From an uncultured Chloroflexia bacterium (lineage in GTDB: Bacteria; Chloroflexota; Limnocylindria; Limnocylindrales; CSP1-4): a stretch of 64,000 bases of DNA. The position numbers were made by a program, and so were the translations under genes. Below are positions 1 to 62,268 of the stretch, piece by piece. Within the stretch, counting starts at the first letter, position 1; the number at the start of each line of letters is the position of its first letter. The stretch is from assembly GCA_963718285.1 (NCBI GenBank), contig CAVQYU010000006.1, positions 94,059 to 158,058 on the forward strand. The letters run 5' to 3'. The notes under the pieces are model-generated. The model had not been told where the DNA came from and did not search any database. It saw only the letters and a list, made by a program, of their open reading frames with translations.

Positions 1-3
1 CTG

Positions 4-16679: not shown

Positions 16680-16746
16680 GTTCGTCTGCTCCTGCGAGCG
16701 GCGAACCCGGCCCGGCCGGGACGTCCCCTACTCGGCGTGATGAACG

Positions 16747-16823
16747 TGGTGGGCGACACTGGACTCGAACCAGTGACCTCTTGCATGTCAAGCAAGTGCT
16801 CTAACCAACTGAGCTAGCCGCCC
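16747..16823 (-). tRNA. tRNA-Val (anticodon GAC), CCA encoded
   Basis: The reverse complement folds as a cloverleaf. The acceptor stem is GGGCGGC/GTCGCCC (one G-T). The D-arm is GCTCAGTTGGTTAGAGC. The anticodon stem-loop is CTTGC-TTGACAT-GCAAG. The T-arm is ACTGGTTCGAGTCCAGT, and the 3' end is ACCA. Confidence 0.9.
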
Positions 16824-31655: not shown

Positions 31656-31695
31656 GCAAGCCGAGTGTACCCGGCAGCCCGTACGATGGCCCCTG

Positions 31696-36881: not shown

Positions 36882-36926
36882 TTGACGCGCCCGCGAGCCC
36901 CGGCTAGTGTCAGGCAATCGGTTGCG
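36882..36926 (+). promoter_or_regulatory. Promoter-operator module a: TTGACG-17-TAGTGT followed by the LacI-type operator GGCAATCGGTTGCG
   Basis: -35 at 36882-36887, -10 at 36905-36910, operator at 36913-36926. It lies 34 nt upstream of the MFS start. Confidence 0.6.
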
Positions 36927-36959
36927 CACTCCATCGCGCCGGCTCGGGAGCTCTCGGCA

Positions 36960-38225
36960 GTGGATCCGTTCGACCTGAATCCTGGCACCCGGGCTGGCCA
37001 CGATATCGCGGCCTCGCTCCGGGTTGGGGCGTTCCGCTGGCTGTGGGTCTCGGTCTTCCTGAGCAGCTTCGGGATGTACGCCAGCCTGCTCATCCTCACC
37101 TGGCTCGCGCTCGAAATTGACGGGTCGGCCCTGGCCGTCGGCGTCGTGCTCGCGGCGCGGGTCCTGCCCCAGCTCATCCTGGGCATTCCCGCCGGCGCCC
37201 TGGCCGATGGCTTCCCACGAGCCCGGCTGGTCAAGGCAGCCAACCTCGGTTCGACGGTCGTCGTCGGGCTGCTCTGCCTGGCCTGGCAGGCTGGCGCCTC
37301 CGGGCTGGCCGTCCTCGTGGCAGCAACGTTCCTGATCGGTTCGTTCGACGCCATCCGGGGCACCGCCGGGAGTGCCATGGCGTTCGACCTGGTCGGCCGT
37401 CGCTCGGCTTCGGCGGCGATCGCCCTGAGCAACCTGGCGGCCCAGGTGTCGGGCATCTTCGCCGGGATCGTGGCGGGCTACGGCCTGTCCTCGGTCGGGC
37501 CGACGGCCACCCTCGTCGTGATCGGCCTGGCCTACGCCCTCGGCGCCCTGGCCATGGTCCCGATCCGGCCGGTCGCGCCGTCCGGGCCGATCGCCCAGCG
37601 GGGGCGGGTCAGCCTGCGCCGGGCGGCGACCCTCGTCACCAGGAACCACCAGGTGGCCCTGATCGCGGTGATCGTGACCGGCACCGAGGTGCTCGCCTTC
37701 TCCAACATGACCCTCCTGCCCAGCTTCGCCCGCGATGTCTTCGGCATCGGCGCCGTCGGACTGGGCTGGTTGCTCAGTGCCCGGGCCATCGGCGGGACGC
37801 TCGGCCTGGTGGCCGTTGCGACGAGCGCCAGCCGCTGGCGCACGATCGGCTCGTTTGCCTTCCTGGCGGCCGCCTTCGGGGTGGCCCTGATCGCGTTTGC
37901 GGTCACGTCGTTCCTGGCGGTCGCGCTGATCCTGGCGGGCGTGATCGGAGCCGTCGGCGCGGCCGTGGACACGGTCGGCCAGTCGCAGGTCCAGCACGCG
38001 GTCAACGAGACCGAACGCGGCTCGGCCATGGGTGTCTGGATGTTCTGTCTGGGCCTGGGCCTGGTAGGCCACATCGAGACGGGCCTGGTGGGCAGCGTCA
38101 TGGGCGCGCCGTTCGCCCAGATCGCCAACGGGCTCATGCTCGTGATCCTGGCCAGCGCCGTCTGGCTGGCCCTGCCCGCGGTTGATCCGGGCCGGGCCCG
38201 GAAGGCCGCTCCGGCCCCGGACTAG
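36960..38225 (+). CDS. MFS transporter
   Basis: About 12 TM helices follow RVGAFRWLWVSVFLSSFGMYASLLILTWLAL. The GTG 36960 start was chosen downstream of module a. Confidence 0.8.
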   Translation: MDPFDLNPGTRAGHDIAASLRVGAFRWLWVSVFLSSFGMYASLLILTWLALEIDGSALAVGVVLAARVLPQLILGIPAGALADGFPRARLVKAANLGSTVVVGLLCLAWQAGASGLAVLVAATFLIGSFDAIRGTAGSAMAFDLVGRRSASAAIALSNLAAQVSGIFAGIVAGYGLSSVGPTATLVVIGLAYALGALAMVPIRPVAPSGPIAQRGRVSLRRAATLVTRNHQVALIAVIVTGTEVLAFSNMTLLPSFARDVFGIGAVGLGWLLSARAIGGTLGLVAVATSASRWRTIGSFAFLAAAFGVALIAFAVTSFLAVALILAGVIGAVGAAVDTVGQSQVQHAVNETERGSAMGVWMFCLGLGLVGHIETGLVGSVMGAPFAQIANGLMLVILASAVWLALPAVDPGRARKAAPAPD

Positions 38226-38363
38226 GGACGAGCGCTAGGCCTTCGCCCCGAAGTCGACCTCGCCGGTCGCGACCGTGCCGGCCGTCCTGCCCGGGGCCTT
38301 GTGGTAGGTCCAGTACAGGTTCGTGTGGGTGCTGCTCGGAGACACGGTACCCCGCCCCGAGCT

Positions 38364-39568
38364 CAGACGGCCTGGAACTCCGCCGGCAGGTGCTTGAAGG
38401 CGCGGTCGGTCGGGGTGCTGATCCGCTCCGTCGGCCCGCTGATCGCATATTCGGGGATCCGGGCGAAGAGCTCCTCGAACGCGATCCGGCCCTCGAGCCG
38501 GGCAAGCGGCGCCCCGATGCAATGGTGAATGCCTTCGCCGAAGGTGAGGTGGCGGAGCGGCTCGCGGGTGATGTCGAGGCGATCCGGGTCGGTCCAGCGC
38601 CGGTCATCACGGCCGGCTGACAGCCCAGATCAGGCTGACGTGGGCGCCCTCCGGGATCGTCTGCCCGTCGACATCGACATCCTGGACCGTCGTCCGGAGC
38701 AGCGTCTGGATCGGCGGGTCGAAGCGCAGCAGCTCCTCGACGGCCGCGGGCAGGCGCTCCGGTTCGGTCCGCATCAGGGCGAGCTGATCGGGATTGCTGG
38801 CGAGATGGTAGAGCGAGTTGGAGATCAGGCCGGCGGTCGTGGTGATCCCGGCCACGAAGAGCAGGACGGAGCTGCCCAGGATCTCGTCGTTGCTGAGCAG
38901 GCCATCCTTCTCGGCCTGGACCATCGTGCTGAGGAGGTCCTCGCGTGGGTGGATCCGCCGCGCCGCTGCGGCCTCCCCGACGTACGCCTGGAGCTTGTCG
39001 CGGGCGTGGAGCGTGCTGGCGGGCATCGCCGCCTGCCCGGGCACGCGATGGAGCAGCTGGTCGAACCACTCGAGGAGCATCGCGTGGTCCTCGTCCGGGA
39101 AGCCCAGCCAGGTGCACACCATCTGGCCGGGCAGCGGACGGGCCAGGTCCTGGGCAAAGTCCGCCCGGCCTGACTCGGCGAACTGGTCGACGAGGGCGCG
39201 CGCCACGACCCGGACCGGCGGCTCGAAGCGCTCCCGGACGGCCGTCGGGTTGAACGCGTCCCTGAAGACCTTGCGCAGGCGGGTATGGATCGGCGGGTCC
39301 ACGCCGGCGAGGTCGCCGGCCGGCTGGAAGAGCTGGTACGTGTCGTCGTGGTCGTTGCCCTCGCGGCTCGAGTACGTCTGCCAGTCGCGGGCGACCCGCT
39401 GGACGTCCTCGAAGCGCGAGAAGCGCCCAGACGTCCCGTCCGAGGTGGTGGTAGAGGGGCGCCTCGTCGCGCAGCCGGCGATAACCGGGGTACGGGTCCT
39501 CCAGGGGCAGGAGCGGGATCCCACGGAATGGGTCCGGGCGGGGAGACCTGGGGCTCGGCGTCGATCAT
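38364..39568 (-). CDS. Cytochrome P450 (apparent frameshifts near 39440 and 38610)
   Basis: I-helix LLFVAGITTT, EELLRF (ExxR) and the heme loop FGEGIHHCIGAPLA (hand-translated C-part, stop at 38364) are present. The ATG at 39568 has GAGGTG 7 nt upstream. Confidence 0.8.
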
Positions 39569-39597
39569 CGTCGTTCACCTCGGCGTGGGACCGGGCG

Positions 39598-39611
39598 TGC
39601 AATCGTTCGCA
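39598..39611. promoter_or_regulatory. LacI-type operator b: TGCAATCGTTCGCA
   Basis: A 14-mer palindrome-like site centred on CG. It lies in the 99-nt divergent spacer between the P450 gene (-) and the TIM-barrel gene (+). It has one mismatch to the TGCAAnCGnTTGCA pattern. Confidence 0.5.
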
Positions 39612-39667
39612 CGTGCGATCATCCTACAACCCGGCGCCAGCCGGTCGCCGACCCTGAGGAGCTTCGA

Positions 39668-40595
39668 TTGGACATCGGCCTGTACACCGATTCGCTCACC
39701 GAGCACGCCTTCGAGGACGCCCTCGAGATCGCCGCGGCCAGCGGCGTCGGTTCGATCGAGATTGCCACCGGCGGCCAGTCGAGCGCGCCCCACCTGGACG
39801 TCGACCGGCTCCTCGCGAGCGCTCCGGCGCGCTCAGCATTCCAGGCCGCCTTTGCCAGCCGCGGGCTGCGCATCGCCGCCCTCAATTGTTCGGCCTGGCC
39901 GATGCATCCGGTCGTCGGGCCGGCTCACGCCGAGCTGATCAGCAAGACCCTCCGCCTCGCCCAGGAGCTGGGCGTCACGAAGATCGTGTCGATGTCGGGC
40001 TGCCCCGGCGACGGCCGCGGCGCGACCACGTTCAACTGGACCTGGTACCCGTGGCCGGCTGACGCCGTGAGCCTGGCCGGGCCCACTGGGCCGAGGCGGT
40101 CCGGTTCTGGTCGGCCAAGGCCGCGAGGCGGAGGACGCGGGCGTCCGCCAGATCGCGTTCGAGCTCCATCCCCTGCACGTCGTCTACAACGTGCCCACGC
40201 CCTCGCCTTCCGGGCCGAAGTCGGCGCGACGATCGGGGTGAACATGGACCCCAGCCACCTGTTCTGGCAGCAGATGGACCCGATCGCCGTTACCCGCGCG
40301 CTCGGGCCGGCGGTCCAGCACGTCCACATGAAGGACACCGAGATCGTAGCCAGCCAGGTCGCCCTGGCCGGCGTGCTCGACAACCGGCCCTTCGAGCGAC
40401 CGGCCGAGCGGGCCTGGGTCTTCCGGACGGTCGGCCGGGTCCATTCGCTGGAGTGGTGGACCGAGTTCGTCGGCTGCCCTCCGCCAGGCCGGCTACGACG
40501 ACGCCCTGTCGATCGAGCAGGAGGATCCGTTCACCGGGCAGGCGGAGGGCGTCCGGGAGGCCGCGGCCTACGGTCAGCCGGCTGCTTCGAGGTAG
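39668..40595 (+). CDS. Sugar phosphate isomerase/epimerase (xylose isomerase-like TIM barrel), apparent frameshifts near 40090-40200 and 40475
   Basis: The TTG start has GAGGAG 6 nt upstream. Blocks include DIGLYTDSL..SIEIATGG, LGVTKIVSMSG and VNMDPSHLFWQQMDP..HVHMKD. The C-terminal GYDDALSIEQED is in another frame. Confidence 0.72.
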
Positions 40596-41431
40596 CCCTG
40601 GATCTTCTCGAACATCAGGCGCGACGACTCGACCGCGCGCTCCTCCCAGGCGAAGACGCAGCTGGTCAGGATGCCGTCGAAGCCGATCGCCTTGAGGGCG
40701 CCGAAGCAGGCCTCGAAGTCGACCTCGCCCTGGCCGATATCGAGATGCTGGTGGACCCGGGCGGAGGACCCGGGCGGGTTGATGATGTAGCGCAGCCCCG
40801 AGCTGGCCCGGTGGTTGAGCACGTCGGCGATGTGGACCTGGGCCAGGACCGGGGCCGCGTGGGTGATCATCGCCGCGATGTCGTCGCCCAGGTAATAGGT
40901 GTGGGGCGCGCAGAAGACGTAGCGCACCCGGTCCGAGTCGATCGCCCGGACGAGGGCCACGGCCTCCTCGTTGCGCTCGATGAAATCGTCCGGGTGAGCC
41001 TCCAGGTTGAGCCGAATGCCCTCCCGCTCGAAGACCGGCAGGAGCTCCTCCATCGAGCGCCAGAACTGGGCCTCGCTCCGGGCGGCCTGCTCGGGCCGGC
41101 CGTTGAACTCCGAGTTCATCGTGCTGCAGCCGACGTCCACGGCCAGCTCGATCGCCCGCTTCCAGTAGCCCACCGCGGCCTGCCGCTCGTCCTCATCCGG
41201 GCTCGACCAGCGGTACAGGGGCAGGATCGAGGCGAGCTCCAGGCCCGTGTCGCGCAAGGCCGTCCGGAACTCGGTGACCCTGGCTCGATCGGCTCGGGGA
41301 TGGGTGAAGAACGGGATGAAGTCCGGCCGGGGCGACAGCTCGATCGAGTCGTAGCCGATGTCCGCCGCAATCCGGCAGACCTCCCCGAAGGGTCGCTCGC
41401 GGAGCATGTACGGATCGAGGGCAATCTTCAC
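40574..41431 (-). CDS. Sugar phosphate isomerase/epimerase (IolH-like TIM barrel)
   Basis: Blocks include VKIALDPYML..SIELSPRPDF..MNSEFNG..LNLEAHPDDFIE..HQHLDIGQGEVDF..FDG. The GTG start overlaps the stop of the upstream large hydrolase (GTGA). Confidence 0.82.
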   Translation of the reverse strand: MKIALDPYMLRERPFGEVCRIAADIGYDSIELSPRPDFIPFFTHPRADRARVTEFRTALRDTGLELASILPLYRWSSPDEDERQAAVGYWKRAIELAVDVGCSTMNSEFNGRPEQAARSEAQFWRSMEELLPVFEREGIRLNLEAHPDDFIERNEEAVALVRAIDSDRVRYVFCAPHTYYLGDDIAAMITHAAPVLAQVHIADVLNHRASSGLRYIINPPGSSARVHQHLDIGQGEVDFEACFGALKAIGFDGILTSCVFAWEERAVESSRLMFEKIQGYLEAAG

Positions 41432-44060
41432 GTCGGTGCGCCTCCCCGGGTCGATTGGGCCAAGCGGTCGCGGAGGGTGGCTCCGCTGGCCGCGATTCGG
41501 GCCACCATGCGCGAGCGCAGGGCAGGGTCGTCGATCGCCGCGATCGTGGCCAGCCAGCGGGCCGTCCCGTCGATCACCGCCAGGATCGCTTCGGCGTCGC
41601 CGGCGGCAATCAGGGGCCGGTCCAGGACCTCGACGTAGACCGGCGAGGTGTGGGCGGCCATGCTCGTGCCGAAGGCCGAGTGGATCTGGTAGTCGCTCCT
41701 GGAGCGAGCCGCGATCCAGGCCCCGGCGTCGACCGCCAGCGAGGTCTCCAGGCGGAGGTCGGTGGCCGCGGCCGCGAGCGTGCTCGGCGGCCACGACCCG
41801 GCCATTGACGACCAGCTCGACCGCATTGACCAGCGGCTGGGCGGCGCGCGCCCGGACCGTCACCGCGAGATGGCCGCCGCCGGCCGGCAGGCTGATCACG
41901 GCACCCGGCTCCTGGCCGTCCACGAGCAGCTCGAGGATCGGCCCCGAGGTCGCGAACGTCCGGCCGGCCCGGATCGCGGCGGCCCAGGCTCGAACGAGGG
42001 CGCCCGACAGCGTCCGGCCCGCGTCGAGCCCGTGGTCCAGGTGGGCGTACGTGCGCATCGCCCCGAGGGCAACCTCGGCCGACATCTTGTCGGTTCCGCC
42101 CACGACCGGCAGGCGGTAGCCGCAGTTGAGGAAGCGGTACCACTCGAGGATCGAGGGATTGTCCAGGCCGGGCGCGAAGACCTGCATCTCGACGGCGTCG
42201 ATCAGACCGGCCACGACAGCCGCCGCGATCTCGGCAAAGGGCAGCGGAAAGTGAGCGCCGACGACCAGCCCGCCGGCGGCGTGGCACCGATCGGCCCAGT
42301 CGGCCAGCAGCTCGCTCACCGGCTGGCCGATGCGTCCCTCTGGCGCGCCGCCCGAGGCGAGCGGCAGGACCGGCGGGCGGGCGCCGAGGAGGGCCAGATG
42401 GCCAAGCATGTTCTGCCGGTTCTCGGTACCGACCATCACCGTGTGGCGCCCGGCCGGATCCTGCTGCCCGCCCCAGGCCAGGTCCGGCACGTTGATGAAG
42501 TGATCGCCCAGCTGAGTCGCCAGGACGTGGACGATGTCGACGTCCTCGGCGGCTGCCTGCAGCAGCGCGGTCGACGGAGCCAGGAAGTGAACGTGCGAGT
42601 CCGAGCTGCGCCAGCCGGAAGGACGCAGGTCGATCGGGTGGTCGATCGTGAACGCCAGCTTGTTCGTGCCGGGCTCGACCTGGACCGTCGTGCCGGACCG
42701 GCCGGTGATCGAAGCCCTTGACCAGCTCGACCGCGATCGGCCCGACCGGCAGGTCGATCTGGAACTCGCCGGGAACATAGGCGTAGGTGTCCGTGCCCAG
42801 GATCAGGCCTGCCCCGCTGTCCTCGAAGATGCCCGGGTTGACCTCGTCCCGGTGGCCCAGCGGGGGCAGGTAGCGGCCGGCCTCGTCCAGGAAGCGGACC
42901 CGGGCCGGCGTCGTGGCGCCGCCGGCGGTGACCCGAACGTTGACCCGGACGTCCGGACGGGCCAGCTGCCGGATCGAAGCTCCAGCGGCCAGGGCCACCT
43001 CCGCGCCTGCGTCGAGCTCGGCCGCCGTCACGACTGATGAGCCGAACGTGATCCGGGCGTCGGGCGCGAGGCTGAGATCCAGGATCGAGTCACCCGTCGC
43101 AGCGTCCCCGGAAGCCGGCGGCTGGCCCCAGCCGATCGGGCTGGACCGCGGGGTGGCCGGCAGCCGGCCGGCCGGCTGCGACCGGATCGCGCTGCCGAGG
43201 TCGACCCCGGGCAACGCTCCGTTGGGCCCGCTCAGCAGGAACTGTCGCCGGCCTGCCGCGACAAGCGGGTTGGCCCGGCCGGCGAACAGGGTCAGCCCTG
43301 CGATCACCACGTCGGTGCCCGGGCGGCCCTCTCCCAGCGAGCCAATCCGCAGGGCCACGGGCGCCACGCCCGGCTCGAGGGCGATGGCGTGGAGCCACAG
43401 GGTCAGGTCATTGGTCGGGCTCGGGATGTAGTCGACCGCGCCCGACTGGCCCGCCGCCCACGCCCCGGGCAGGGTCGTGAGGGGTCCCGCCTGGCCGGCC
43501 GGGGCGGTGCGGCCGTAGCCCTGGTCCGGGAAGGGCCCGCGCCAGTCGAGGACCTGGTCGGCCTGGTGACCGATCGCCTCGAACGGCAGGAAGCCCCAGC
43601 CGATGATCCCATCGTCGATCTGGACCCGACGCTGGATCTCGATCGCCTGGCTGCGACCGTCGCCGAAGACGAGCTCGTAGCGGGCCAGCGCCTCGCCCGT
43701 GGGCAGGACCCAGCCCACGGGCATTCCGGCGGGCGCCCTCCCCCAGGCTCGCGCCAGCTGTCCGAGAAGTGGGCCACGACGAGGTGGCTCGCCGAGACGG
43801 CGCCCGCGCCGGCGCCGGCCAGGTCGAGCTCCAGGCTCTGGCCGGCCTCGGCCAGGACCCAGCGCCGCCCGGCCGACCGCCGGCCGAGTGAAAAGGGCAG
43901 CCCGCGCAGGATCACGTCGCCCTGGGGCAAGCGGGCGAAGGCCGGGGCATAGAGCGGATCGAACCGGCCGGCCAGGTCGGGGTCGGTGGCGTTCCAGCCG
44001 GCCGACGAGGTCGATCGGCCAGGCCAGCGGGCTCGCCGAGGCCAACCCGGGCTGGGTCAT
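41428..44060 (-). CDS. Large (~875 aa) PHP/CehA-McbA-like metallohydrolase with an uncharacterised N-terminal half, paralog 1 (at least 4 apparent frameshifts)
   Basis: It is collinear with the intact paralog at 51391..53988: GLPFSLG..HLVVAHFSD, YELVFGDG, IGWGFLPF, LDWRGPFP, LTLWLHAIALEPG, RYLPPLGHRDEVNPG, SDSHVHFLAPST, GTENRQNMLGHLALLG, GGTDKMSAEV and AAHTSPVYVEV. Fragments are spread over four frames. Confidence 0.7.
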
Positions 44061-44083
44061 GACGCCAAGTCCTCCGACCGATA

Positions 44084-44130
44084 TTGACGCGGCATGAGCG
44101 GCGATGATACCGTCGTTGCAATCGGTTGCG
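44084..44130 (+). promoter_or_regulatory. Promoter-operator module c: TTGACG-18-TACCGT followed by the operator TGCAATCGGTTGCG, shared with a divergent candidate promoter
   Basis: -35 at 44084-44089, -10 at 44108-44113, operator at 44117-44130. SD GGGAGGG and the iolD GTG follow directly. On the minus strand, TTGCGC (44133-44128)-18-TATCAT (44109-44104) faces paralog 1. Confidence 0.6.
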
Positions 44131-44144
44131 CAAGGGAGGGCACG

Positions 44145-46031
44145 GTGAACTCAGTACGGCTGACCGTGGGCCAGGCGGTCGTCCGGTTCTGCGCCGCCCA
44201 GGACGTCGAACGGGATGGTCGTGAGCACCGGTTCATCGCCGGCTTCTGGGGCATCTTCGGTCACGGTAACGTGGCCGGCCTGGGCCAGGCCCTCGAGGAG
44301 CTCGGTGACGAGCTGCGGATGCCGCTCTACCGGCCCCAGAACGAGCAGGCCCAGGTCCACATCGCGGCCGCCTTCGCCAAGCACCACAACCGGCTCCAGG
44401 CCTACGCCTGCACCTCATCGGTCGGCCCGGGCGCCCTGAACATGGTCACCGGGGCCGCCGGCGCAACGGTCAATCGAATCCCGGTCCTGCTCTTCCCCAG
44501 CGACTACTTCGCCAATCGAGCGCCCGATCCGGTCCTCCAGCAGATCGAGCATCCGGTCGAGCGCGACGTCAGCGTCAACGACGCGTTCCGGCCGGTGTCG
44601 CGTTTCTTCGACCGGATCTCCCGCCCCGAGCAGCTCCTGGCTTCCCTGCCTGCCGCCTTCCGGGTCCTGACCGACCCGGTCGAGACCGGTGCCGTGACCG
44701 TATCCCTGCCCGAGGACGTCCAGGCCGAGGCCTACGATTGGCCCCTGAGCTTCTTCGAGCGGCGGACCTGGCGGGTTCGTCGCCCCGTGCCCCAGGCCGC
44801 CGACCTGGCCGACGCGGTCCGCCTGATCAGCCAGGCCAAGGCGCCCCTGCTCGTGACCGGCGGCGGCACGATCTATGCCGAGGCCACGCCCGAGCTCGAT
44901 GCCTTCGCCAGCCAGTTCGGGATCCCGGTCGTGGAGACCCAGGCCGGCAAGGGCGCCCTGCCCTGGAGCCACCCGCTGAACGTGGGTCCCGGCGGCACGA
45001 ACGGCAGCCTGGCCGCGAACCGCCTGTCGCGCGAGGCCGACCTGGTCATCTGTGTCGGCACCCGGATGGGCGACTTCGTGACCGCCTCGCAGTCGGCCTT
45101 CCAGAATCCGGAGGTCGCCTTCGTCGGCCTGAACATCGCCCCGTTCGATGCCCACAAGCTGCGGGCCACGGCCATCACCGCGGACGCCCGGGAAGGGCTC
45201 CGGGCCCTCCGGGCCGAGCTCGCCGCCGCCGGCTATGCAGGGTCATCCGCGGCGTATCGCGAGCGCGCCGCCGGCCTCAAGCAGGAGTGGGACGGGATCG
45301 TCAGCGGCCTGCGCGCCGTCAATGGCGAGCCGGGCGACCTGGGCCAGGCAGAGGTGATCGGCCTGGTCAATGACGCCGTTGGTGGCCGGGCCACGGTCAT
45401 CTGTGCGGCGGGCAGCCTGCCCGGCGACCTGTTGCGCCTGTGGCGGGTCGACGACCCGAAGGCCTATCACGTCGAGTACGGCTTCTCGTGCATGGGCTAC
45501 GAGATCGCGGCCGGCCTGGGCGTGCGCCTGGCCGAGCCCGACCGGGACGTCGTGGTCATGGTCGGCGACGGGTCCTACCTGATGATGAACTCGGAGATCG
45601 TGACTGCCGTGGCCGAGGGCCTCAAGCTCACGATCGTGGTCCTCGACAACCACGGCTTCCAGTGCATCCTGGCCCTCCAGCGGATGGTCGGGGTGCCCGA
45701 CTTTGCCAACGAGCTGCGCTTCCGCGACCCGGCCACCAACCGGCTGACCGGGCCCTACGTACCGATCGACTTCCGCCAGCATGCCGAGGCGATGGGCGCC
45801 CTGGGCCTCCTGGCCCGGACGCCGGACGAGCTTCGGGCGGCCCTCGACCAGGCCCGTGCCAGCGACCGGATCACGGTCATCCTCGTGCCGACCGAGCCCG
45901 AGAAGCGGGTCACCGGCTTCGAGACGTGGTGGGACGTGCCGGTGGCCGAGGTGAGCGGACAGGCCGGCGTGCGCACGGCCCGGGCCGCCTACGAAGTCGC
46001 CCTCGGCCGGCAACGCACCGACCTTCGCTGA
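44145..46031 (+). CDS. iolD: 3D-(3,5/4)-trihydroxycyclohexane-1,2-dione acylhydrolase (IolD-type ThDP enzyme)
   Basis: The ORF is intact. VRLTVGQAVVRF..FIAGFWGIFGHGNVAGLGQALEE is typical of the IolD N-terminus. The ThDP motif is GDGSYLMMNSEIVTA...VLDNHGF. The GTG 44145 start sits behind GGGAGGG; the tracked ORF begins at 44094. Confidence 0.85.
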   Translation: MNSVRLTVGQAVVRFCAAQDVERDGREHRFIAGFWGIFGHGNVAGLGQALEELGDELRMPLYRPQNEQAQVHIAAAFAKHHNRLQAYACTSSVGPGALNMVTGAAGATVNRIPVLLFPSDYFANRAPDPVLQQIEHPVERDVSVNDAFRPVSRFFDRISRPEQLLASLPAAFRVLTDPVETGAVTVSLPEDVQAEAYDWPLSFFERRTWRVRRPVPQAADLADAVRLISQAKAPLLVTGGGTIYAEATPELDAFASQFGIPVVETQAGKGALPWSHPLNVGPGGTNGSLAANRLSREADLVICVGTRMGDFVTASQSAFQNPEVAFVGLNIAPFDAHKLRATAITADAREGLRALRAELAAAGYAGSSAAYRERAAGLKQEWDGIVSGLRAVNGEPGDLGQAEVIGLVNDAVGGRATVICAAGSLPGDLLRLWRVDDPKAYHVEYGFSCMGYEIAAGLGVRLAEPDRDVVVMVGDGSYLMMNSEIVTAVAEGLKLTIVVLDNHGFQCILALQRMVGVPDFANELRFRDPATNRLTGPYVPIDFRQHAEAMGALGLLARTPDELRAALDQARASDRITVILVPTEPEKRVTGFETWWDVPVAEVSGQAGVRTARAAYEVALGRQRTDLR

Positions 46032-46068
46032 CCAGCAAAGCCAACTACAGACACACGAGGAGAGATCG

Positions 46069-47307
46069 ATGGCAGGACCTGGGGTCGAGCTGATTGGGGC
46101 CGAAGAGACCGCCCACGTGCTGGAGGTCATGTCCAGCGGCTTCCTGAGCCGCTACGGCCCGTCCGACAATCCGGCCTTCGGCGCCAAGGTCCACAAGGTC
46201 GAGCTCGCGGTGGCCAAGCTGGCCGGCGTGCGCTACGGCCTGGGCTTGCACGGCGGTGGCTCGGCCGGGCTGTGGGTCACCCTGCTCGGCCTGGGCATCG
46301 GCGCCGGCGACGAGGTGATCGTGCCCGGCTTCACCTTCGTGGCCTCGATCTCGGCGATTGTCTACACCGGGGCGACACCCGTCCTGGCCGAGGTCGACCA
46401 GTCGTTCGACCTGGACCCGGTCGACGTCGAGGCCCGGATCACCCCCCGCACGGCGGCCATCCTCGTCGTCCACATGCTGGGCGGACCAGCCCGCATGACG
46501 GAGCTCAAGGCGATTGCCGACAAGCACGGGATCCCGCTCGTCGAGGACTGTGCCCAGGCGTTCGGCGCGACCTACCAGGGCATCGGGGTGGGCGGCATCG
46601 GCGCCGCCGGCGTGTACAGCTTCAACGAGTACAAGACGATCACCTGCGGCGATGGCGGCATGATCGTGACCGATGACGAGGCGCTGTACGAGCGCTGCTT
46701 CGCGATGCATGACCAGGGCCATGCTCCGGACCGGCTCGAGTCGAAGTACGCCCCGCGCCCGTTCCTGGGCATGAACTTCCGGATGACCGAGCTGTCCGGG
46801 GCGGTCCTGCTCGGGCAGCTGGGCAAGCTCGACCAGATCACCTCGCATCTGCGGGCCAACAAGGCGATCGTCCAGGAGTTCCTCGAGGAAGCGCCCGAGA
46901 TCGACTTCCGGACCCTGCCCGATCCGGCCGGCGACCTGGCCACCCACCTGGTCGTGGTCCTGCCTTCGGCCGAGATCGCCGGCAAGGTGGCCGACGAGGT
47001 CGGCTCGATCACCCTGTCCGAGTCGGGCTGGCACGTCTACAGCAAGATGAACCACCTGCTCGAGCGGCGGACGGTCAACGGCAAGGGCTGCCCCTTCGAC
47101 TGCCAGACGCCGGGCCACTCGCACGGCGACTACCGGATCGGGATGCTGCCCCAGACGGACGCGTTGCTCGAGCGCTCGATCAGCATCGGGATCGGAGTCC
47201 GCGACGCCAACCTGGCGCCGTTCGGATTGCGGATGCGGGACGGGGCCGACGAGGCCCGCTCGGTGGCCCTGACCTTTCGCGACGCCGTCAACAAGCACCT
47301 GGCCTGA
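46069..47307 (+). CDS. DegT/DnrJ/EryC1/StrS-family PLP aminotransferase
   Basis: Intact 412-aa ORF. Blocks are DEVIVPGFTFVAS, LVEDCAQAFG and the PLP-lysine block YSFNEYKTITCGDGG. Confidence 0.85.
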   Translation: MAGPGVELIGAEETAHVLEVMSSGFLSRYGPSDNPAFGAKVHKVELAVAKLAGVRYGLGLHGGGSAGLWVTLLGLGIGAGDEVIVPGFTFVASISAIVYTGATPVLAEVDQSFDLDPVDVEARITPRTAAILVVHMLGGPARMTELKAIADKHGIPLVEDCAQAFGATYQGIGVGGIGAAGVYSFNEYKTITCGDGGMIVTDDEALYERCFAMHDQGHAPDRLESKYAPRPFLGMNFRMTELSGAVLLGQLGKLDQITSHLRANKAIVQEFLEEAPEIDFRTLPDPAGDLATHLVVVLPSAEIAGKVADEVGSITLSESGWHVYSKMNHLLERRTVNGKGCPFDCQTPGHSHGDYRIGMLPQTDALLERSISIGIGVRDANLAPFGLRMRDGADEARSVALTFRDAVNKHLA

Positions 47308-47384
47308 TCTTCGGGCGCGCCCGGTGATCGAGGCCGCGCACGGCGCCGGCGATCGCGCCGGCTCGCCCGATCCTCCCAGCCTGC

Positions 47385-48257
47385 ATGTCACCGATCCTGG
47401 CCGGCTCCGTCACCGCGGTCGCCTATGCCATCTCGACCCTGACCTCGGCCCGCAGCGCCCGGCTGGCTGGACCGGGCCCGACCGTGGCCGGGGTGATGAT
47501 CGTGGGCACGATCCTGCTCGTTCCGATTGCCCTCATCCTGAGCCCGATCCGGACCAGCCCGGAGGTCCCGGCCTCGACCCTGCTGCTGGCCGCGGTGGCC
47601 GGGCTGGCCAACGTCGGCGGCCTGCTCCTGGCCTACGCCGCCTATCGAATCGGGACCGTCGGGGTGGTCTCCACGATCGGCTCGACCGAGGGCGCGATCG
47701 CGGCAGTCATCTCGATCGCGGCCGGCCAGGTCCTGGCTCCGGGCTCCGGGCCGGCCCTGGTCGTGGTCGCGATCGGGGTGATCCTGGCGGCGACGGGCGG
47801 CGGCCACGAGCTCGAGGAGGGCGTCGCGATCAGCCGGGCCCGCTCCCTGCGAGCCGCCGGCCTGGCCATGTGCGCGGCGTTGCTGCTGGGCACGGGCCTG
47901 TTCATCGCCGGCCAGGTCAGCACCTCGTTGCCACCGGCCTGGGTGGTCCTGCCGGGCAGGATCGTGGGCATCGCCGTGGTAACGGTCCCGATCGTGCTCA
48001 GCGGGCGTGGCCGAGTCCCGCGCCGTTCGCTCAAGTTCATCGGCATGACCGGGATCGTGGAGGTGGTCGGGCTCCTGTCGTTCTCGGTCGGAGCGGCCCA
48101 GGACATCGCGATCACGTCGGTCCTCGGCTCGATGTTCGCGCCGCTCGGCGTCATCGCGGCCTTCGTCCTGTTCCGGGAGCGGCTGGCCCCCCGCCAGATC
48201 GCGGGCATCGTCCTGGTCGTGATCGGCATCGCCGTGCTGGGCAGCCTGGCCAGCTAG
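47385..48257 (+). CDS. EamA/DMT-family transporter
   Basis: Intact 290-aa ORF with 10 TM-like segments in two halves. Confidence 0.8.
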   Translation: MSPILAGSVTAVAYAISTLTSARSARLAGPGPTVAGVMIVGTILLVPIALILSPIRTSPEVPASTLLLAAVAGLANVGGLLLAYAAYRIGTVGVVSTIGSTEGAIAAVISIAAGQVLAPGSGPALVVVAIGVILAATGGGHELEEGVAISRARSLRAAGLAMCAALLLGTGLFIAGQVSTSLPPAWVVLPGRIVGIAVVTVPIVLSGRGRVPRRSLKFIGMTGIVEVVGLLSFSVGAAQDIAITSVLGSMFAPLGVIAAFVLFRERLAPRQIAGIVLVVIGIAVLGSLAS

Positions 48258-48289
48258 CTCGATGAATCCGCTCGCCCAAGGTTGACCTG

Positions 48290-49147
48290 ATGCGCCTCGT
48301 CTACAACTCCAACTCGACCATGCACCTGCCGGTCCTGATGCAGATCCGGGTGGCCCACGAGACGGGCTGGGACGGCGTGTTCCTGCGCGAGGAGCACATC
48401 CGGCGCTACCTCGAGCAGGGCTATAGCGTGGCCAGCCTCCGCCAGGGCCTGGCCGGACTCGAGCCGGTCAACATCGGGGCGCTGGCCGACGTGGAGCGCT
48501 GGCTGCCGGCGGACCACCGGGCGATGCTGGCCGAGGCGAGCGCCCTGACGGAGCTCGCGGCGACCGTCGGCGCCAGCTTCATCCAGCTCCTGACCGGCCC
48601 GGTCCAGCCGGGCGGGCCCTACCCCGGTCCAGGCGGGCTGAGCCGGGCCGAGCGCCGGACCGTCACGGCCCAGGCCCTCCGGTCGGTCGCCGCCCTCGGT
48701 GCCGGCCGTGGGATCCGCTACTACCTGGAACCGATCGCCTGGACGCCCCTGGCCAGCCTGGCGGAGGCGGTCGAGGCGATCGACGCCGCGGAGTCCGACA
48801 ACCTCGGCCTGGTCCTCGACTTCTGGCACCTGTGGCAGGCCGGTACCAGCCCCGACGAGATCGCCCGGCTCGACCCGCGACTCATCGCCGGGGTGGACTT
48901 CGCCGATTCGCTCGGCCCGCCCGGTGCGCCCTCGCCCGACCAGGCCAGCCGGCGGGTGTGGCCCGGCGAGGGTGCGATTCCCCTGCGCGAGTGGGTCGCC
49001 GCGGTCCGCTCGACCGGCTTCGACGGCTGGTGGGACAACGAGCTGTACAGCCCGCTCCACTGGGAGCTGGCCGATCCGTTCGCCGTCGGGCGGGGGCTCC
49101 GGGAGGTCCTGCGCGAACTCCTCGGGACCGATCCGCCGATTGGTTGA
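48290..49147 (+). CDS. Sugar phosphate isomerase/epimerase (TIM barrel)
   Basis: Intact 285-aa ORF with blocks YYLEPIAW, LGLVLDFWHLW and FDGWWDNELYSP. Confidence 0.8.
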   Translation: MRLVYNSNSTMHLPVLMQIRVAHETGWDGVFLREEHIRRYLEQGYSVASLRQGLAGLEPVNIGALADVERWLPADHRAMLAEASALTELAATVGASFIQLLTGPVQPGGPYPGPGGLSRAERRTVTAQALRSVAALGAGRGIRYYLEPIAWTPLASLAEAVEAIDAAESDNLGLVLDFWHLWQAGTSPDEIARLDPRLIAGVDFADSLGPPGAPSPDQASRRVWPGEGAIPLREWVAAVRSTGFDGWWDNELYSPLHWELADPFAVGRGLREVLRELLGTDPPIG

Positions 49148-49190
49148 CGCGGGCGAGGGCCCCTGCTACGGTCGAATGCAATCGGTTGCC
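49144..49190 (+). promoter_or_regulatory. Promoter-operator module d: TTGACG-17-TACGGT followed by the operator TGCAATCGGTTGCC, upstream of the LacI gene
   Basis: -35 at 49144-49149 (overlapping the stop of the preceding gene), -10 at 49167-49172, operator at 49177-49190. Confidence 0.6.
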
Positions 49191-49224
49191 CCATCTGGAG
49201 TGGACCACAGGTGAGACCGGGCGC

Positions 49225-50302
49225 TTGGTAGCCAGCGGATACGTCCCCACGCCGCGCCGCCGAGTCCTGCTCAAGGACGTCGCCCAGGCGGCCAGCGTCT
49301 CCGGCTCGACCGCATCACGGGCCCTGGCCGACGATCCCCGGATCAGCCTGGCCACCCGGCTCAGCGTCAAGGCGGCTGCCGCCGAGCTCAACTACGTGCC
49401 CAACGCGGCCGCCCGCAGCCTGCGCATGAAGCACACCCGGACCCTGGGCCTGCTCGATCCCCGATTTGCGCGACCCGGTCCACGGCCAGGTCGCCTCGGG
49501 CTTCGAGGAAGAGGCGCGCCGGAGTGGCTATTGCGTGATCATGGTCGCCGGTGAGAACGAGCCGGTGCGCGAGCGCCTCGGCCTCAAGATCTTCGCCGAG
49601 CACGGCGCCGACGGGGTGGCGATCGTGTCCAGCGCGATCTCGCCGCGGGAGGCGCGCGAGCGCGTCGATCCCGACCGGTTGATCCTGGTCCAGCCGGATC
49701 ATCCCAGCCTGCCCCGGCGCGAGGGCAGCCTCCCGCCCGGGGTCATCCTGACCGACGACGCCGCCGGCCTGCGCGCTGCGGTCAACCACCTGGTCGACAA
49801 CGGCTACCGCCGGATCGCGTATGTCGAGGGCGGCGGTGGCGCGTCGAACACAGTTCGGTCCGAGGCCGTGGCGTCGACCTTGCGCAGCCGGGGGGTCAAG
49901 ATCGCCGTGCGCACCTTTGCCGCCACGGGCGACACCTGGCGCGACCCGGGGGAGCTGGCGGCCGCGATCGCGGCCGACCTGCCCGAGGCGCTCGTGTGCT
50001 ACGACGACAAGCTGGCCCTGGCCCTGATGGACGAGCTGCGCAAGCTCCGGGTGCGGGTGCCCGAGGACATCGGGATCGTGGGCTTCGATGGGATCCCCTT
50101 CGCCGCCCTGGCCAACCCGCGCCTGACCACCGTGGCCACCCCGGCCGGGGAGATGGGCCGCCTGGCGGCCGCCTCGCTGATCCGGACGATCCAGGTCGGC
50201 GCCCGCTCGGAGGCGATCCTCCTGGCGCCCGAGCTGATCGTGCGCGAAAGCACCCGGACCCTGCCCTCGCCGGCGGGCCGTCGCGGCGGCACCGCTGGAT
50301 GA
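49225..50302 (+). CDS. LacI-family transcriptional regulator (apparent frameshift near 49460; start uncertain)
   Basis: The HTH is LLKDVAQAASVSGSTASRALADDPRIS..NYVPNAAARSLR. The periplasmic-binding-like core in ORF 49466..50302 has GADGVAIVS, VCYDDKLALALMDELR, VPEDIGIVGFDGIP and LTTV. Confidence 0.8.
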
Positions 50303-51360: not shown

Positions 51361-51390
51361 TCCGGGCCAGAACTGGTCAGGCGAGTCTGG

Positions 51391-53988
51391 TCACGGCCTT
51401 CCGCTCATCCGGCGCTCGAGGGCGGCCAGGCTGGCATCGAAGAACGCCAGCATCCGCTCCCGCTCGGCCGGCTCGGCGATCGCCGCCAGCTCGGCCACCC
51501 AGGTCCGGGCGCCCACGATGATCTGCTCGACGGCCGCCCCGTCGCCGGGGGGCGGGATCAGGGGCGCATCCTGGACTTCGACGTAGACCGCCGACGTATG
51601 GGCGGCCATCGCCGTCGTGAATGCGGACTGCAGGTCGACCCGGCTGCGAACCCGGCCGGCGATCCAGCTGCCGGCCCGGACGTCGATCGACTCGTCCAGA
51701 CCAAGCTCGGTCGCTCCCAGCGCGCCGCCCGTGGACGCCACGACCCGGCCGTTCACGACCAGCTCGAGCTCATTGAGCACGGCCTGGGCGGACCGTGCCC
51801 GGAGGCTGACCTCGAGGCGGCCCGCCGACGGCAGCTGGATGACCGCGCCCGGTTCGCGCCCTTCGACCGAGAGCTCGAGCAGGGGGCCGGAGCTGACGAA
51901 CGTCCGGCCGGCCCGTACGGAGGCCGCCCAGCCGGCGAACGTCAACGGCTCGTCGGATAGCAGGTGGGTGTAGGCCCGCACCGCGCCGATCGGTACCTCA
52001 GCCGTCATCTTGTCCGTGCCGCCAACGAGCGGCAGCCGATAGCCGAGGTTGAGGAAGCGGTACCACTCCAGGACCGACGGGTCGTCCAGCCCCGGCGACA
52101 AGGCCTGGGTCTCGACGGCGTCGATCCGGCCACTCACGATGTCGGCTGCGATCTCGGCGTAGGGCAGCGGAAAGTGGGCCGCGACCACGAGCCCGCCGGC
52201 GGCCCGGCAGCAGTCGGCCCAATCGGCCAGGAGGACCTCCAGGGCACCGGCCAGCCGGCCCTCGGGCGGCCCGCCGCTGGCCAGCGGGTTCGTCGGGCGG
52301 CCGGCGCCCAGGAGAGCCAGATGGCCCAGCTGGTTCTGTCGATTCTCGGTCCCGACCACGATGATCCGGCGGCCTTCCGGGTCGGCCATCGAGCCCCATG
52401 GCAGGTCGGTCACGTTGGTGAACAGGTCGCCCCACTGGGCCGCGAGCAGGTTGACCAGGTCGACGTCCTCCGCGGCCGCCTGGAGGAGGGCCGTCGAGGG
52501 GGCGAGGAAGTGGACGTGGCTGTCGGCGCTGATCCAGCGCCCAGCGCCGGCCAGTCCCAGCCTGGGTGCGAGCGGCAGCTCGAGGCGGCGGGTCGAGGGC
52601 TCCACCCGGATCGTGGTGGCGATGGGTGGCCGATCGAAGCCGGTCACGACCTCGACCTCGACCTCCCCCAGCGGCAGGTCGATCTCGAACCGGCCCGGGA
52701 CGTAGGCATAGGTCGAACCGCCCAGGATCAGGTCGCCGCCGGTGTCCTCGAAGAAGCCCGGATTGACCTCGTCCCGGTGGCCCCGGGGCGGCAGGTAGCG
52801 GCCGTCGGGGGTGGCGAACTGGACCCGGGCGGGCAGGTGCTCGCCGGTCAGCCGGTCGACGAGCTCGACCTCGACCGGAATGCGGGCGGCGGGCAGGAGC
52901 TCGATCGACCTGTGCCCGCCACGTTCCGCGATCGGCCGTCCCTCGACCAGATCCCGGGCGGCCACCGGCCAATCGCCGAGGCTGACCGTGGCGTCGGGCG
53001 CGAAGGCGAGGTCGACGATCACGCCCTCGCCCGCTCCCCCGCCTGGCTCGATCTCCGGATCGAGCCAGGGCGTGCCCCAGCCGATGATTCGCGAGGCGCT
53101 CGCCGACGGCCCGAGCCTGGCCGGGCGGCGGACCGGCCGGCTGCGAATGACCGTGCCCAGGTCGATCCCGGGTGGCTCACCCGCCGTCCCTTCCAGCCGG
53201 ACCTGCCCGCGTGGCGACCGGACGAGCGGGCTCGCCGAACCGTTGAACACGGTCACCGCGGCCACGATCAGGTCGCTGCCCGGCCGGCCGCCGGAGCGTG
53301 GCTCGAGCTGCAGCTCGACCGGCTCGGCTCCGTCCTCCAGCGCGATGGCATGGAGCCACAGCAGGAGGTCGTCGGTGCCGCTCGGCACGAAGTCGGAGAC
53401 GCCGGTCAGGTCAGTTCCGTAGCTGCCCGGGATGATCGTGAGGGTGCCCGACTGGCCGGTTGGCGCGTAGCGGCCCGGGAACTGGGCCGGGTGCGGCCCG
53501 CGCCAATCGAGGACCTCCGTCTCGCGATGGCTGATCGCTGCGAACGCTCCCGAGCCCCAGCCGAGCAGGCCGTCGTTGACCTCGAATCGGCGCCGGATCG
53601 GGCGGGTCGTCCGGCGGCCGCTCCGCTCGACCACGGTGTACTCGGCCAGGACCTCGCCGACCGGCACGACGTGGCCCAGGGCCAGGCCCGCCGGCCGCCG
53701 GCCGTCATCGTCGCGCCAGGCATCGGCCAGGTGGGCGATCACGACATGGCTGACCCGGCCACCCCCATCGAGCTTGACCGAGACCGGCCGGTCGACCAGG
53801 ATCCAGCGCCGGCCGTCGCTGGGCCCCAGCTCGAACGGCAGGCCATGGAACACCTGCCGCCCGGCGGGCAGCCGGGCCAGGCCCCCGGCATAGCCCGGAT
53901 GGAACCGGGCGACGAGCTCCAGCTCGGTCGCGTTGCGGGTCGATTCGAGGTCGACCGGCCGGCCCAGGCGGCTCGCCCGAAGGGTCAC
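51391..53988 (-). CDS. Large (865 aa) PHP/CehA-McbA-like metallohydrolase with an uncharacterised N-terminal half, paralog 2 (intact)
   Basis: Single intact ORF with no signal peptide. Residues ~1-470 have no motif I recognise. The C-half has ADSHVHFLAPST, GTENRQNQLGHLALLG, VVAAHFPLP, GGTDKMTAEV and a tail with AAHTSAVYVEV, typical of CehA/McbA-type PHP-fold hydrolases. Confidence 0.8.
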   Translation of the reverse strand: MTLRASRLGRPVDLESTRNATELELVARFHPGYAGGLARLPAGRQVFHGLPFELGPSDGRRWILVDRPVSVKLDGGGRVSHVVIAHLADAWRDDDGRRPAGLALGHVVPVGEVLAEYTVVERSGRRTTRPIRRRFEVNDGLLGWGSGAFAAISHRETEVLDWRGPHPAQFPGRYAPTGQSGTLTIIPGSYGTDLTGVSDFVPSGTDDLLLWLHAIALEDGAEPVELQLEPRSGGRPGSDLIVAAVTVFNGSASPLVRSPRGQVRLEGTAGEPPGIDLGTVIRSRPVRRPARLGPSASASRIIGWGTPWLDPEIEPGGGAGEGVIVDLAFAPDATVSLGDWPVAARDLVEGRPIAERGGHRSIELLPAARIPVEVELVDRLTGEHLPARVQFATPDGRYLPPRGHRDEVNPGFFEDTGGDLILGGSTYAYVPGRFEIDLPLGEVEVEVVTGFDRPPIATTIRVEPSTRRLELPLAPRLGLAGAGRWISADSHVHFLAPSTALLQAAAEDVDLVNLLAAQWGDLFTNVTDLPWGSMADPEGRRIIVVGTENRQNQLGHLALLGAGRPTNPLASGGPPEGRLAGALEVLLADWADCCRAAGGLVVAAHFPLPYAEIAADIVSGRIDAVETQALSPGLDDPSVLEWYRFLNLGYRLPLVGGTDKMTAEVPIGAVRAYTHLLSDEPLTFAGWAASVRAGRTFVSSGPLLELSVEGREPGAVIQLPSAGRLEVSLRARSAQAVLNELELVVNGRVVASTGGALGATELGLDESIDVRAGSWIAGRVRSRVDLQSAFTTAMAAHTSAVYVEVQDAPLIPPPGDGAAVEQIIVGARTWVAELAAIAEPAERERMLAFFDASLAALERRMSGRP

Positions 53989-54002
53989 GAATGGGCGACG
54001 TA

Positions 54003-54047
54003 TTGACGGGTCATGGGCCGGACGCTAGCATCGTACAAACGGTTGCA
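54003..54047 (+). promoter_or_regulatory. Promoter-operator module e: TTGACG-17-TAGCAT followed by the operator TACAAACGGTTGCA, shared with a divergent candidate promoter
   Basis: -35 at 54003-54008, -10 at 54026-54031, operator at 54034-54047. On the minus strand, TTGTGC (54050-54045)-17-TAGCGT (54027-54022) faces paralog 2. Confidence 0.6.
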
Positions 54048-54092
54048 CAAGAGGGAGCTTGATGTCCGGACAAGGTCCAGATCGTCCCTGCC

Positions 54093-55184: not shown

Positions 55185-55208
55185 CCACACCAACTGGAGG
55201 AGCACGGA

Positions 55209-56393: not shown

Positions 56394-56417
56394 GATCGGC
56401 GTAACCCATTCCCTGAC

Positions 56418-58176: not shown

Positions 58177-58280
58177 ACGGGCCCGATTGAGCGGTCTCCT
58201 CGGCTCGCGTCCCGGCCCGGAGGCCCCGCATCCGGCTGGGCTTCCAGGTCTGGGGCCAGGCAGCATCCTGGACCGAGCTG

Positions 58281-59189: not shown

Positions 59190-59232
59190 ACCGGGGCGGA
59201 TTCCGCCGCCCGAATCACTGGAGGTAGATTTG

Positions 59233-60234: not shown

Positions 60235-60261
60235 GCCAGCGCGCCCAGACGGAGGAACCGA

Positions 60262-62257: not shown

Positions 62258-62268
<11 letters not shown>
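61192..62268 (+). CDS. Transaldolase-family protein
   Basis: Intact 358-aa ORF. It has GATSNPTIV, the Schiff-base lysine block MQVKFPATAAG and INATVSF. Confidence 0.85.

Follow-up and report, generated by a model that had tools for sequence, protein, structure and literature searches.

Which genes of a sugar-degradation cluster in an uncultured Chloroflexota bacterium answer to one regulator, and is that regulator encoded among them? The question is raised by a 64-kb stretch (64,000 nucleotides, positions 94,059 to 158,058 of contig CAVQYU010000006.1, assembly GCA_963718285.1, 'Ca. Limnocylindrales' lineage), which is called the window throughout and numbered from its first base. The window has a base composition of 71% G+C and holds a 25-kb cluster for inositol-type sugar breakdown. 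A preliminary description had noted a 14-nt palindrome at five intergenic positions there, four of them behind promoter-like boxes, and had proposed a LacI-type regulon. Our own prediction, which we consider probable, is that a LacI/GalR-family repressor encoded in the cluster itself, an 'IolR'-like protein, uses the five sites as its operators.

Five sites and their promoter modules

All five 14-mers and all four modules were found where the preliminary description had placed them. The general module layout here is TTGACG, 17 or 18 nt, TAnnnT, 2 to 4 nt, and the operator:

36882..36926, + strand: module a; -35 TTGACG 36882-36887, 17 nt, -10 TAGTGT 36905-36910, 2 nt, operator GGCAATCGGTTGCG 36913-36926
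39598..39611, no strand assigned: operator b, TGCAATCGTTCGCA, in the divergent spacer between the cytochrome P450 and TIM barrel 1 (TIM1) genes
44084..44133, no strand assigned: module c, a bidirectional promoter region serving iolD (+) and hydrolase paralog 1 (-)
Module c, plus side: -35 44084-44089, 18 nt, TG-extended -10 TACCGT 44108-44113, 3 nt, operator 44117-44130
Module c, minus side: -35 TTGCGC (reverse complement of 44128-44133), 18 nt, -10 TATCAT (reverse complement of 44104-44109)
49144..49190, + strand: module d; -35 49144-49149, 17 nt, TG-extended -10 TACGGT 49167-49172, 4 nt, operator TGCAATCGGTTGCC 49177-49190
54003..54050, no strand assigned: module e, a bidirectional promoter region serving potA (+) and hydrolase paralog 2 (-)
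Module e, plus side: -35 54003-54008, 17 nt, -10 TAGCAT 54026-54031, 2 nt, operator TACAAACGGTTGCA 54034-54047
Module e, minus side: -35 TTGTGC (reverse complement of 54045-54050), 17 nt, -10 TAGCGT (reverse complement of 54022-54027)

The operator consensus, tGCAAnCGnTTGCa, is an even palindrome of 14-16 bp with CG at its centre. This agrees with the LacI/GalR-type shape first assigned to it and with the survey of Ravcheev et al. 2014, in which 1173 of 1303 regulators have even palindromes with a central CG (PMC4052901). With up to two mismatches allowed, TGCAANCGNTTGCA occurs in the window at exactly the five claimed sites, against 0.93 expected, and five occurrences were reached in 1 of 100 shuffles. 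From other genomes only, with the closest relative left out, 58 unique sites were combined into a symmetrised 20-nt weight matrix, whose information, 23 bits in total, is concentrated at positions 4-17. The window's five best matches to this matrix are the five sites (c 25.4 bits, e 24.2, a 20.7, d 19.5, b 12.7), followed by a match of 11.9 bits in coding sequence; the shuffle maximum was 15.6. Sites a, c, d and e are individually significant by the matrix, while site b, which is degenerate at one high-information position, owes its significance to its position and its conservation in two related loci (L058 and L044) only.

All five sites fall within the non-coding share of 36.8-62.3 kb, which is 4.3%, and start codons lie 15-68 nt downstream of them. 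The remaining 37 kb of the window contains no strong site (defined here as at least 14 bits). Module a stands upstream of the major facilitator superfamily (MFS) transporter gene, with its GTG start at 36960 and a Shine-Dalgarno (SD) sequence GGGAG at 36946-36950. On the iolD side of module c the SD lies at 44134-44140 and the iolD GTG at 44145, and on the other side the SD is the reverse complement of 44071-44075 and the paralog 1 ATG is at 44060. The -35 box of module d shares bases with the TGA stop of the gene before it. Near site b, a minus-strand TAGGAT box (reverse complement of 39621-39626) is common to the window and L058, with operator b 9 nt downstream of the box; no recognisable plus-strand promoter for TIM barrel 1 was seen there in the window. 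The transcription units first proposed fit the gene geometry, with the promoter of TIM barrel 1 as the missing piece. A generic sigma-70 scan flagged module e alone.

Recurrence in related loci

We collected 76 related loci, 1.36 Mb in total from about 60 genomes, and found 117 unique strong sites in them. The full module (TTGAC-17/18-TAnnnT-2..5-operator) accompanies 106 of these, with a spacer of 17 nt at 50 and of 18 nt at 56, and with the TG 'extended -10' dinucleotide in 77; most of the other 11 are laid out alike except that the -35 box is degenerate. The architecture read from four window modules is shared across the loci. In the alignments, the spacer letters vary among genomes while the boxes stay constant, a pattern that marks functional promoters and operators. 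The right operator half, CGGTTGC, is better conserved than the left.

The matrix scan of related genomes bore out the proposed set of targets, with sites recurring before iolD, lacI, potA, both hydrolase paralogs, MFS, P450 and TIM barrel 1. The iolD/paralog 1 intergenic class recurs as ...GATGATACCnTC..TGCAATCGGTTGCGcaaGGAG, then the IolD start, and the potA/paralog 2 class (class e) as ACGCTAGCATCG-TACAAACGGTTGCA-caagaGGG; ACGCTAGCAT of module e is unchanged in 24 related genomes. Sites also recur upstream of lacI and, where the gene stands separate, of the DegT aminotransferase. TIM barrel 1 orthologs have a full module of their own in four genomes (L031, L032, L046, L069). A strong site lies within 260 nt upstream of 58 of the 62 Chloroflexota hydrolase genes and of none of the five Acidobacteriota homologs. 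Module a could be tested only beyond the hydrolase-centred loci, in two metagenome contigs, where the layout TTGACG-17-TAGTGT-2-operator is identical before 65%-identical MFS orthologs (L075, 27.9 bits; L076, 26.0 bits). Equivalents of site b occur in the P450/TIM1 spacers of L058 (14476) and L044 (14603, 21.4 bits). The fifth operator holds by location and recurrence, weak though its own 12.7 bits are.

Part of the palindrome is transcribed, since it sits downstream of the -10 box and ahead of the Shine-Dalgarno sequence, and it might be thought to work in RNA, as a 5' stem-loop affecting mRNA stability or translation, instead of as protein-binding DNA. We give this almost no credence. As RNA the 14-mer has weak folding energies, -2.4 to -2.5 kcal/mol and 0 for site e; shuffles fold as well as the predicted 5' untranslated regions do (z -1.3 to +0.45); and a start 7 nt past the -10 box would remove the outer stem. 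In the class-e variant TACAA...TTGCA a mismatch persists without compensation in more than 16 genomes, sites of the TIM1 class are inverted with respect to transcription, and at c and e the site is upstream of the minus-strand starts. An Rfam scan of the window gave no match besides one tRNA.

The regulator gene

Only one LacI-family gene is present in the window, and site d stands in front of it:

49225..50302, + strand: LacI-family repressor gene (lacI), interrupted; helix-turn-helix (HTH) frame to ~49455, ligand-binding domain in frame 49457-50302

The span is 1078 nt, not divisible by 3, with a 1-nt G insertion at 49456, outside any homopolymer, which was located by comparison with the intact 368-aa ortholog of the closest genome, GCA_038239115.1 (locus L001/L006). 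The LacI HTH (PF00356, E 1.4e-15, in the translation of 49192-49440) and the effector domain Peripla_BP_3 (PF13377 / PF00532, E 1.7e-33, in the translation of 49430-50302) share a single uninterrupted frame in L001 and not in the window. The crystal structures of RbsR, CcpA and PurR can be aligned to the intact ortholog from one end to the other. All 17 matches to NCBIfam LacI equivalogs are under the cutoff (best RbsR, 165 bits vs 382), and by sequence the protein would be classed as a generic LacI-family member without named orthology. The hinge motif 'ARSL' is present in the window LacI; we take its leucine to be the one that in PurR inserts at the central CpG. PurR requires a corepressor for DNA binding, and LacI is a tetramer that forms loops.

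Taken at face value, the break in lacI would mean that the operators are real and the switch is dead here, the regulon being constitutive and its left arm (P450, TIM barrel 1, paralog 1) decaying to pseudogenes. The placement of the lacI insertion outside a homopolymer speaks for this, as do the degeneracy of site b and the uneven density of frameshifts: at least seven in 38.3-44.1 kb (two in P450, at least one in TIM barrel 1, four in paralog 1) vs one in the 19.5 kb rightward. None of the indels of 38375-44060 is in a long homopolymer, and local coverage, mixed strains or real decay are possible sources of their density. Frameshifts also split two essential genes, which a living cell could not tolerate:

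14821-16727, - strand: thrS, split between reading frames
31162-33283, + strand: cysS, split; Pfam profile positions 3-117 and 119-298 in two frames, junction near 32124

Moreover, the frame-corrected ratios of non-synonymous to synonymous substitution (dN/dS) against L001 (lacI 0.12, paralog 1 0.22) are like those of intact neighbours (paralog 2, 0.21) and point to purifying selection, and long single-contig (long-read) metagenome-assembled genomes (MAGs) of relatives contain split genes of the same kind. With thrS and cysS frameshifted too, and with selection evident in the corrected genes, the window indels, the lacI break included, are most likely assembly errors, and we regard a dead switch as unlikely. 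Exact-match look-ups with three window proteins gave no second record of this genome. L001 is fully syntenic with the window from the aminotransferase beyond the transaldolase to paralog 1, with proteins 86-98% identical. The gene calls made earlier need correction for P450, TIM barrel 1, paralog 1 and lacI, which are frameshifted in this sequence, and stand for the other 16 syntenic genes, which are intact against L001. A tRNA gene, the only Rfam match in the window, lies just upstream of thrS (16750-16823, - strand).

Sites and regulator travel together. Among the 44 loci of at least 20 kb, 38 have both sites and lacI, three sites only, one lacI only and two neither. Of 46 unique LacI homologs, 28 have a strong site in the 250 nt ahead of them, among them nearly all of those at least 64% identical, and several of the homologs without a site of their own are the second gene behind a regulated promoter. 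The suggestion of autoregulation from site d is consistent with these counts. Three genomes (L050-L052) encode a local LacI homolog of only 41% identity, and in them the hydrolase is preceded by a site (about 9904-9917) that reads TGCAAGCGCTTGCG, with inner bases G/C and not T/G, a change that looks like regulator-operator co-variation.

This bears on the idea that another regulator encoded elsewhere, e.g. a global CcpA-like LacI-family protein, is the true binder and the local lacI only one target among many. The motif does fit the catabolite-responsive element (cre) pattern WGNAANCGNTTNCW and resembles cre and PurR-type boxes (cre consensus: PMC5504672), and the three long loci with sites and no nearby lacI would be explained. 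A global regulator would not be expected to leave the 37 kb of the window outside the cluster without a strong site, or to have sites that follow the cluster and lacI across genomes, or a motif that is altered where the local LacI is divergent; further, the motif demands G and C at positions 2-3 and 12-13 much more strictly than cre does. We judge such a regulator quite improbable.

A predicted local switch

Several points nevertheless weigh against the cluster's own LacI as repressor at all five sites. (i) Read literally, lacI is interrupted after the HTH, and the HTH and ligand domain are in different frames. (ii) Three long loci carry sites with no lacI within 22 kb. (iii) The scan beyond the cluster covers only ~37 kb of this genome and the flanks of related loci, and is not genome-wide. 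(iv) Site b scores under the shuffle maximum, within chance range. (v) Modules a, c and d have -10 boxes that share just 3 of 6 positions with TATAAT; the case for the reality of these boxes is that they are conserved, not that they resemble the E. coli consensus. (vi) The inner two 'N' positions of the operators (e.g. window 44117-44130) are consistently asymmetric (AATCGGTT; the symmetric AACCGGTT is rare), and a symmetric dimer does not account for this.

With the local repressor as the preferred reading, we infer as follows which protein binds, in which direction it regulates, where transcription starts and what kind of compound induces. Sigma-70 promoters start transcription ~7 nt after the -10 box. 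As the operators begin 2-4 nt past the -10 box, the start site would lie inside the left arm of the palindrome, and a bound dimer would span roughly -5 to +10, occluding the start site and so blocking RNA polymerase. At c and e the operator also extends over the -35 box and spacer of the second, putative promoter, which faces the hydrolases, so that a single bound dimer should shut both directions. Through site d the repressor would be autoregulated. The inducer is presumably a metabolite of the inositol pathway that occupies the sugar-binding domain and so frees the DNA of repressor; this would switch on about 20 genes, including the MFS and EamA transporters, the ABC importer, IolD, the IolG-like and IolE-like proteins, the DegT aminotransferase, the two CehA/McbA-type hydrolases, the P450 and others.

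Relation to known LacI-family systems

To our knowledge essentially nothing is known of gene regulation in 'Ca. Limnocylindrales', which are uncultured and abundant in soil and freshwater. The present analysis offers a regulon prediction for this lineage that is supported by multiple genomes, together with about 100 aligned examples of the lineage's housekeeping promoters (TTGACG, 17-18 nt, TGnTAnnnT). It ties about 20 genes, two large hydrolases included, into one inositol-linked unit, which gives a handle for a substrate search. The system is a standard local regulon of LacI/IolR type, in a lineage with no earlier described example, and leaves the knowledge of LacI-type regulation unchanged. 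We find its by-products the most interesting part, namely a leaderless overlapping upstream open reading frame (uORF) within a bidirectional promoter, and the hydrolases.

In the survey of Ravcheev et al. 2014, more than three quarters of local regulators are autoregulated and seven LacI-family groups control inositol use (PMC4052901). The window system resembles those local regulons in its even palindrome (14-22 bp in the survey) with central CG, in operators tens of bp before start codons, in a regulator, predicted to be autoregulated, inside the catabolic cluster, in having several operators per locus, and in its inositol-type targets (IolD, IolG-like, IolE-like, transporters). It differs in that the 'Ca. 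Limnocylindrales' lineage is outside the survey, the likeness to 'IolR' being one of type, and in the unusual contents of the cluster: two 865-aa CehA/McbA-type hydrolases, a P450, a DegT aminotransferase and a luciferase-like monooxygenase are there, and iolB/C/J are missing from the window.

IolQ (DegA) of B. subtilis is likewise a LacI-family repressor of an inositol dehydrogenase gene; it binds AGAAARCGCTTKCK, which has CG at its centre and lies shortly past the start, at +4 to +30 of iolX (PMC5504672). IolQ acts on one gene only, by way of two tandem sites, and leaves its own promoter unbound (PMC5504672), whereas the window system has one site per promoter at five or more promoters, the regulator's included, and the half-site GCAA where IolQ has GAAA. 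E. coli PurR and LacI (PDB 1pnr, 1efa and others), which serve as structural and mechanistic models of the family, share full-length homology and a gapless HTH alignment with the window protein, and the half-site GCAAnCG resembles the PurR box.

Divergent promoters and short upstream ORFs

Minus-strand promoters facing the two hydrolase paralogs had been suggested at c and e. Two short uORFs flank operator e:

53985..54014, - strand: leaderless uORF, MTRQYVAHS*; its ATG is the reverse complement of 54012-54014, 7 nt past the minus-strand -10 TAGCGT
54062..54109, + strand: uORF of 15 codons preceded by an SD, in the interval from operator e to potA; its TGA falls in potA codons 2-3 (TTGCCTGA), and the potA TTG is at 54102

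Of 30 unique class-e regions, 25 have the arrangement TAGCGT, 7 nt (8 in one region), ATG. Although the plus-strand promoter has no need of the ACGC that completes TAGCGT, these four bases do not vary across 24 genomes. With an invariant TAGCGT box 7 nt before a conserved ATG, the putative minus-strand promoter at e is strongly supported. The class-e uORFs have 9-25 codons, and every TGA overlaps an in-frame hydrolase start ATG, GTG or TTG (as ATGA, GTGA, TTGA or TGATG); in the window it shares bases with the GTG start of paralog 2 (GTGA). This geometry indicates that the conserved uORF is leaderless and, as we predict, translationally coupled to the paralog 2 start. A conserved uORF driven by minus-strand promoter e is new in this analysis.

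It recalls the leaderless short first cistrons of mycobacteria (bioRxiv 10.1101/834739), as the minus-strand transcript at e apparently starts at the ATG of a 9-25-codon ORF whose stop overlaps the main start. It differs from them in phylum, and in that its first five codons, M-x-R-Q-Y, are fixed by the opposite -35 box: the R-Q codons are the reverse complement of TTGACG. The class-e uORFs show no sign of amino-acid-sensing codon runs.

The candidate minus-strand promoter at c, TTGCGC-18-TATCAT, is moderately supported. TATCAT differs from TAGCAT by one base on which the plus-strand promoter places no constraint, and ATGATA stands at that place in 27 of 31 iolD modules of related loci, while one-directional modules have ATGCTA. 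A leaderless uORF on the paralog 1 side of c was considered and rejected as a conserved feature, since most other class-c modules lack the ATG; where it is present, as in the window and in L001, it lies 8 nt after TATCAT and opens a 12-codon ORF (by eye) whose TGA overlaps the paralog 1 ATG (ATGA).

On the potA side of e, the TTGNNTGA overlap is found in 10 loci, the window included; elsewhere the uORF differs in length or is fused to potA. Where potA begins, a patch richer in AT contains a second promoter-like match, TTGCCT-16-TAGAAT (54102-54129, + strand).

Genes of the cluster

The genes and operons of the cluster, apart from lacI, are these:

36960..38225, + strand: MFS transporter gene (Pfam MFS_1, E 1.8e-32)
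38375..39568, - strand: cytochrome P450 gene (Pfam p450), in three frames, with frameshifts near 39421 and 38621
39668..40592, + strand: TIM barrel 1, xylose-isomerase-like (Pfam AP_endonuc_2), with a frameshift near 40475
40574..41440, - strand: IolH-like TIM-barrel gene, downstream of paralog 1 (Pfam AP_endonuc_2, E 2e-52)
41431..44060, - strand: hydrolase paralog 1, CehA/McbA-type, with four frameshifting 1-nt indels (41778, 42692, 43729, 44006)
44145..49147, + strand: iolD - DegT aminotransferase - EamA transporter - TIM barrel operon (Pfam), four genes intact against L001
50299..51360, + strand: Gfo/Idh/MocA inositol-dehydrogenase-like gene (Pfam), its start overlapping the lacI stop
51391..53988, - strand: hydrolase paralog 2, 865 aa, intact (NCBIfam NF038032, 131 bits vs cutoff 80)
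54102..62268, + strand: potA - solute-binding protein - potB - potC - luciferase-like monooxygenase - zinc alcohol dehydrogenase (Zn-ADH) - IolE-like - transaldolase operon (Pfam, NCBIfam)

The 397-aa P450 ortholog of L058 matches the window in three different frames (tblastn). The C-terminal ~40 residues of TIM barrel 1 are in another frame, its 313-aa orthologs matching in two frames. IolH-like orthologs follow the hydrolase in 29 loci. All genes of the potA operon are intact and syntenic with L001, with intergenic gaps of at most 45 nt.

IolD is bona fide (TIGR04377 equivalog, 890 bits vs cutoff 715, NCBIfam). The IolG-like (331 bits vs cutoff 355) and IolE-like (148 bits vs cutoff 290) proteins are under NCBIfam equivalog level, and iolB, iolC and iolJ were not found in the window by tblastn with L003 proteins. 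The DegT enzyme is closest to the free-sugar Kdo8N transaminase 5k8b (E 1e-75). In the 865-aa hydrolases the CehA/McbA metallohydrolase domain occupies residues 484-804 only, and the N-terminal ~480 residues are beta-rich, with no counterpart among Pfam families or PDB sequences and no informative match by fold. Paralog 2 had no Pfam match, and a PDB sequence profile search with the hydrolase paralogs found nothing. An AlphaFold2 model (mean predicted local distance difference test score, pLDDT, 77) gave only generic Ig-like beta-sandwich matches in Foldseek against the PDB (TM at most 0.12). With IolD bona fide, the IolG- and IolE-like proteins below their cutoffs, iolB/C/J absent and the hydrolases without a solved relative, the substrate can be narrowed to some inositol-related compound.

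A more specific reading, speculative and in our estimate rather doubtful, is that the regulon is no plain myo-inositol operon and may serve a pathway not yet described, for a compound derived from inositol, perhaps an amino- or otherwise substituted cyclitol, with hydrolase expression through the coupled leaderless uORF. It is suggested by the polyamine-type importer, by the 865-aa hydrolases with their N-terminal region of ~480 residues, and by the free-sugar-type DegT aminotransferase. The compound would be taken up by the polyamine-type ABC importer, its first steps would be carried out by the Chloroflexota-specific 865-aa CehA/McbA-domain hydrolases, and the leaderless uORF, embedded in the opposite promoter's -35 box and spacer, would be translationally coupled to the hydrolase start.

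Homologs of paralog 2 number in the hundreds; the named ones are 'CehA/McbA family metallohydrolase' from Chloroflexota or 'Candidatus Limnocylindrales' MAGs, and the family is widespread in Limnocylindrales, nearly always adjoining this cluster. The inositol pathway contents, as far as gene content tells, appear to differ between close lineages: iolB, iolC and iolJ are in the same cluster of L003 and L005, L001 lacks them, and a transaldolase is carried by the window, L001 and L005, with none seen in the fetched stretch of L003.

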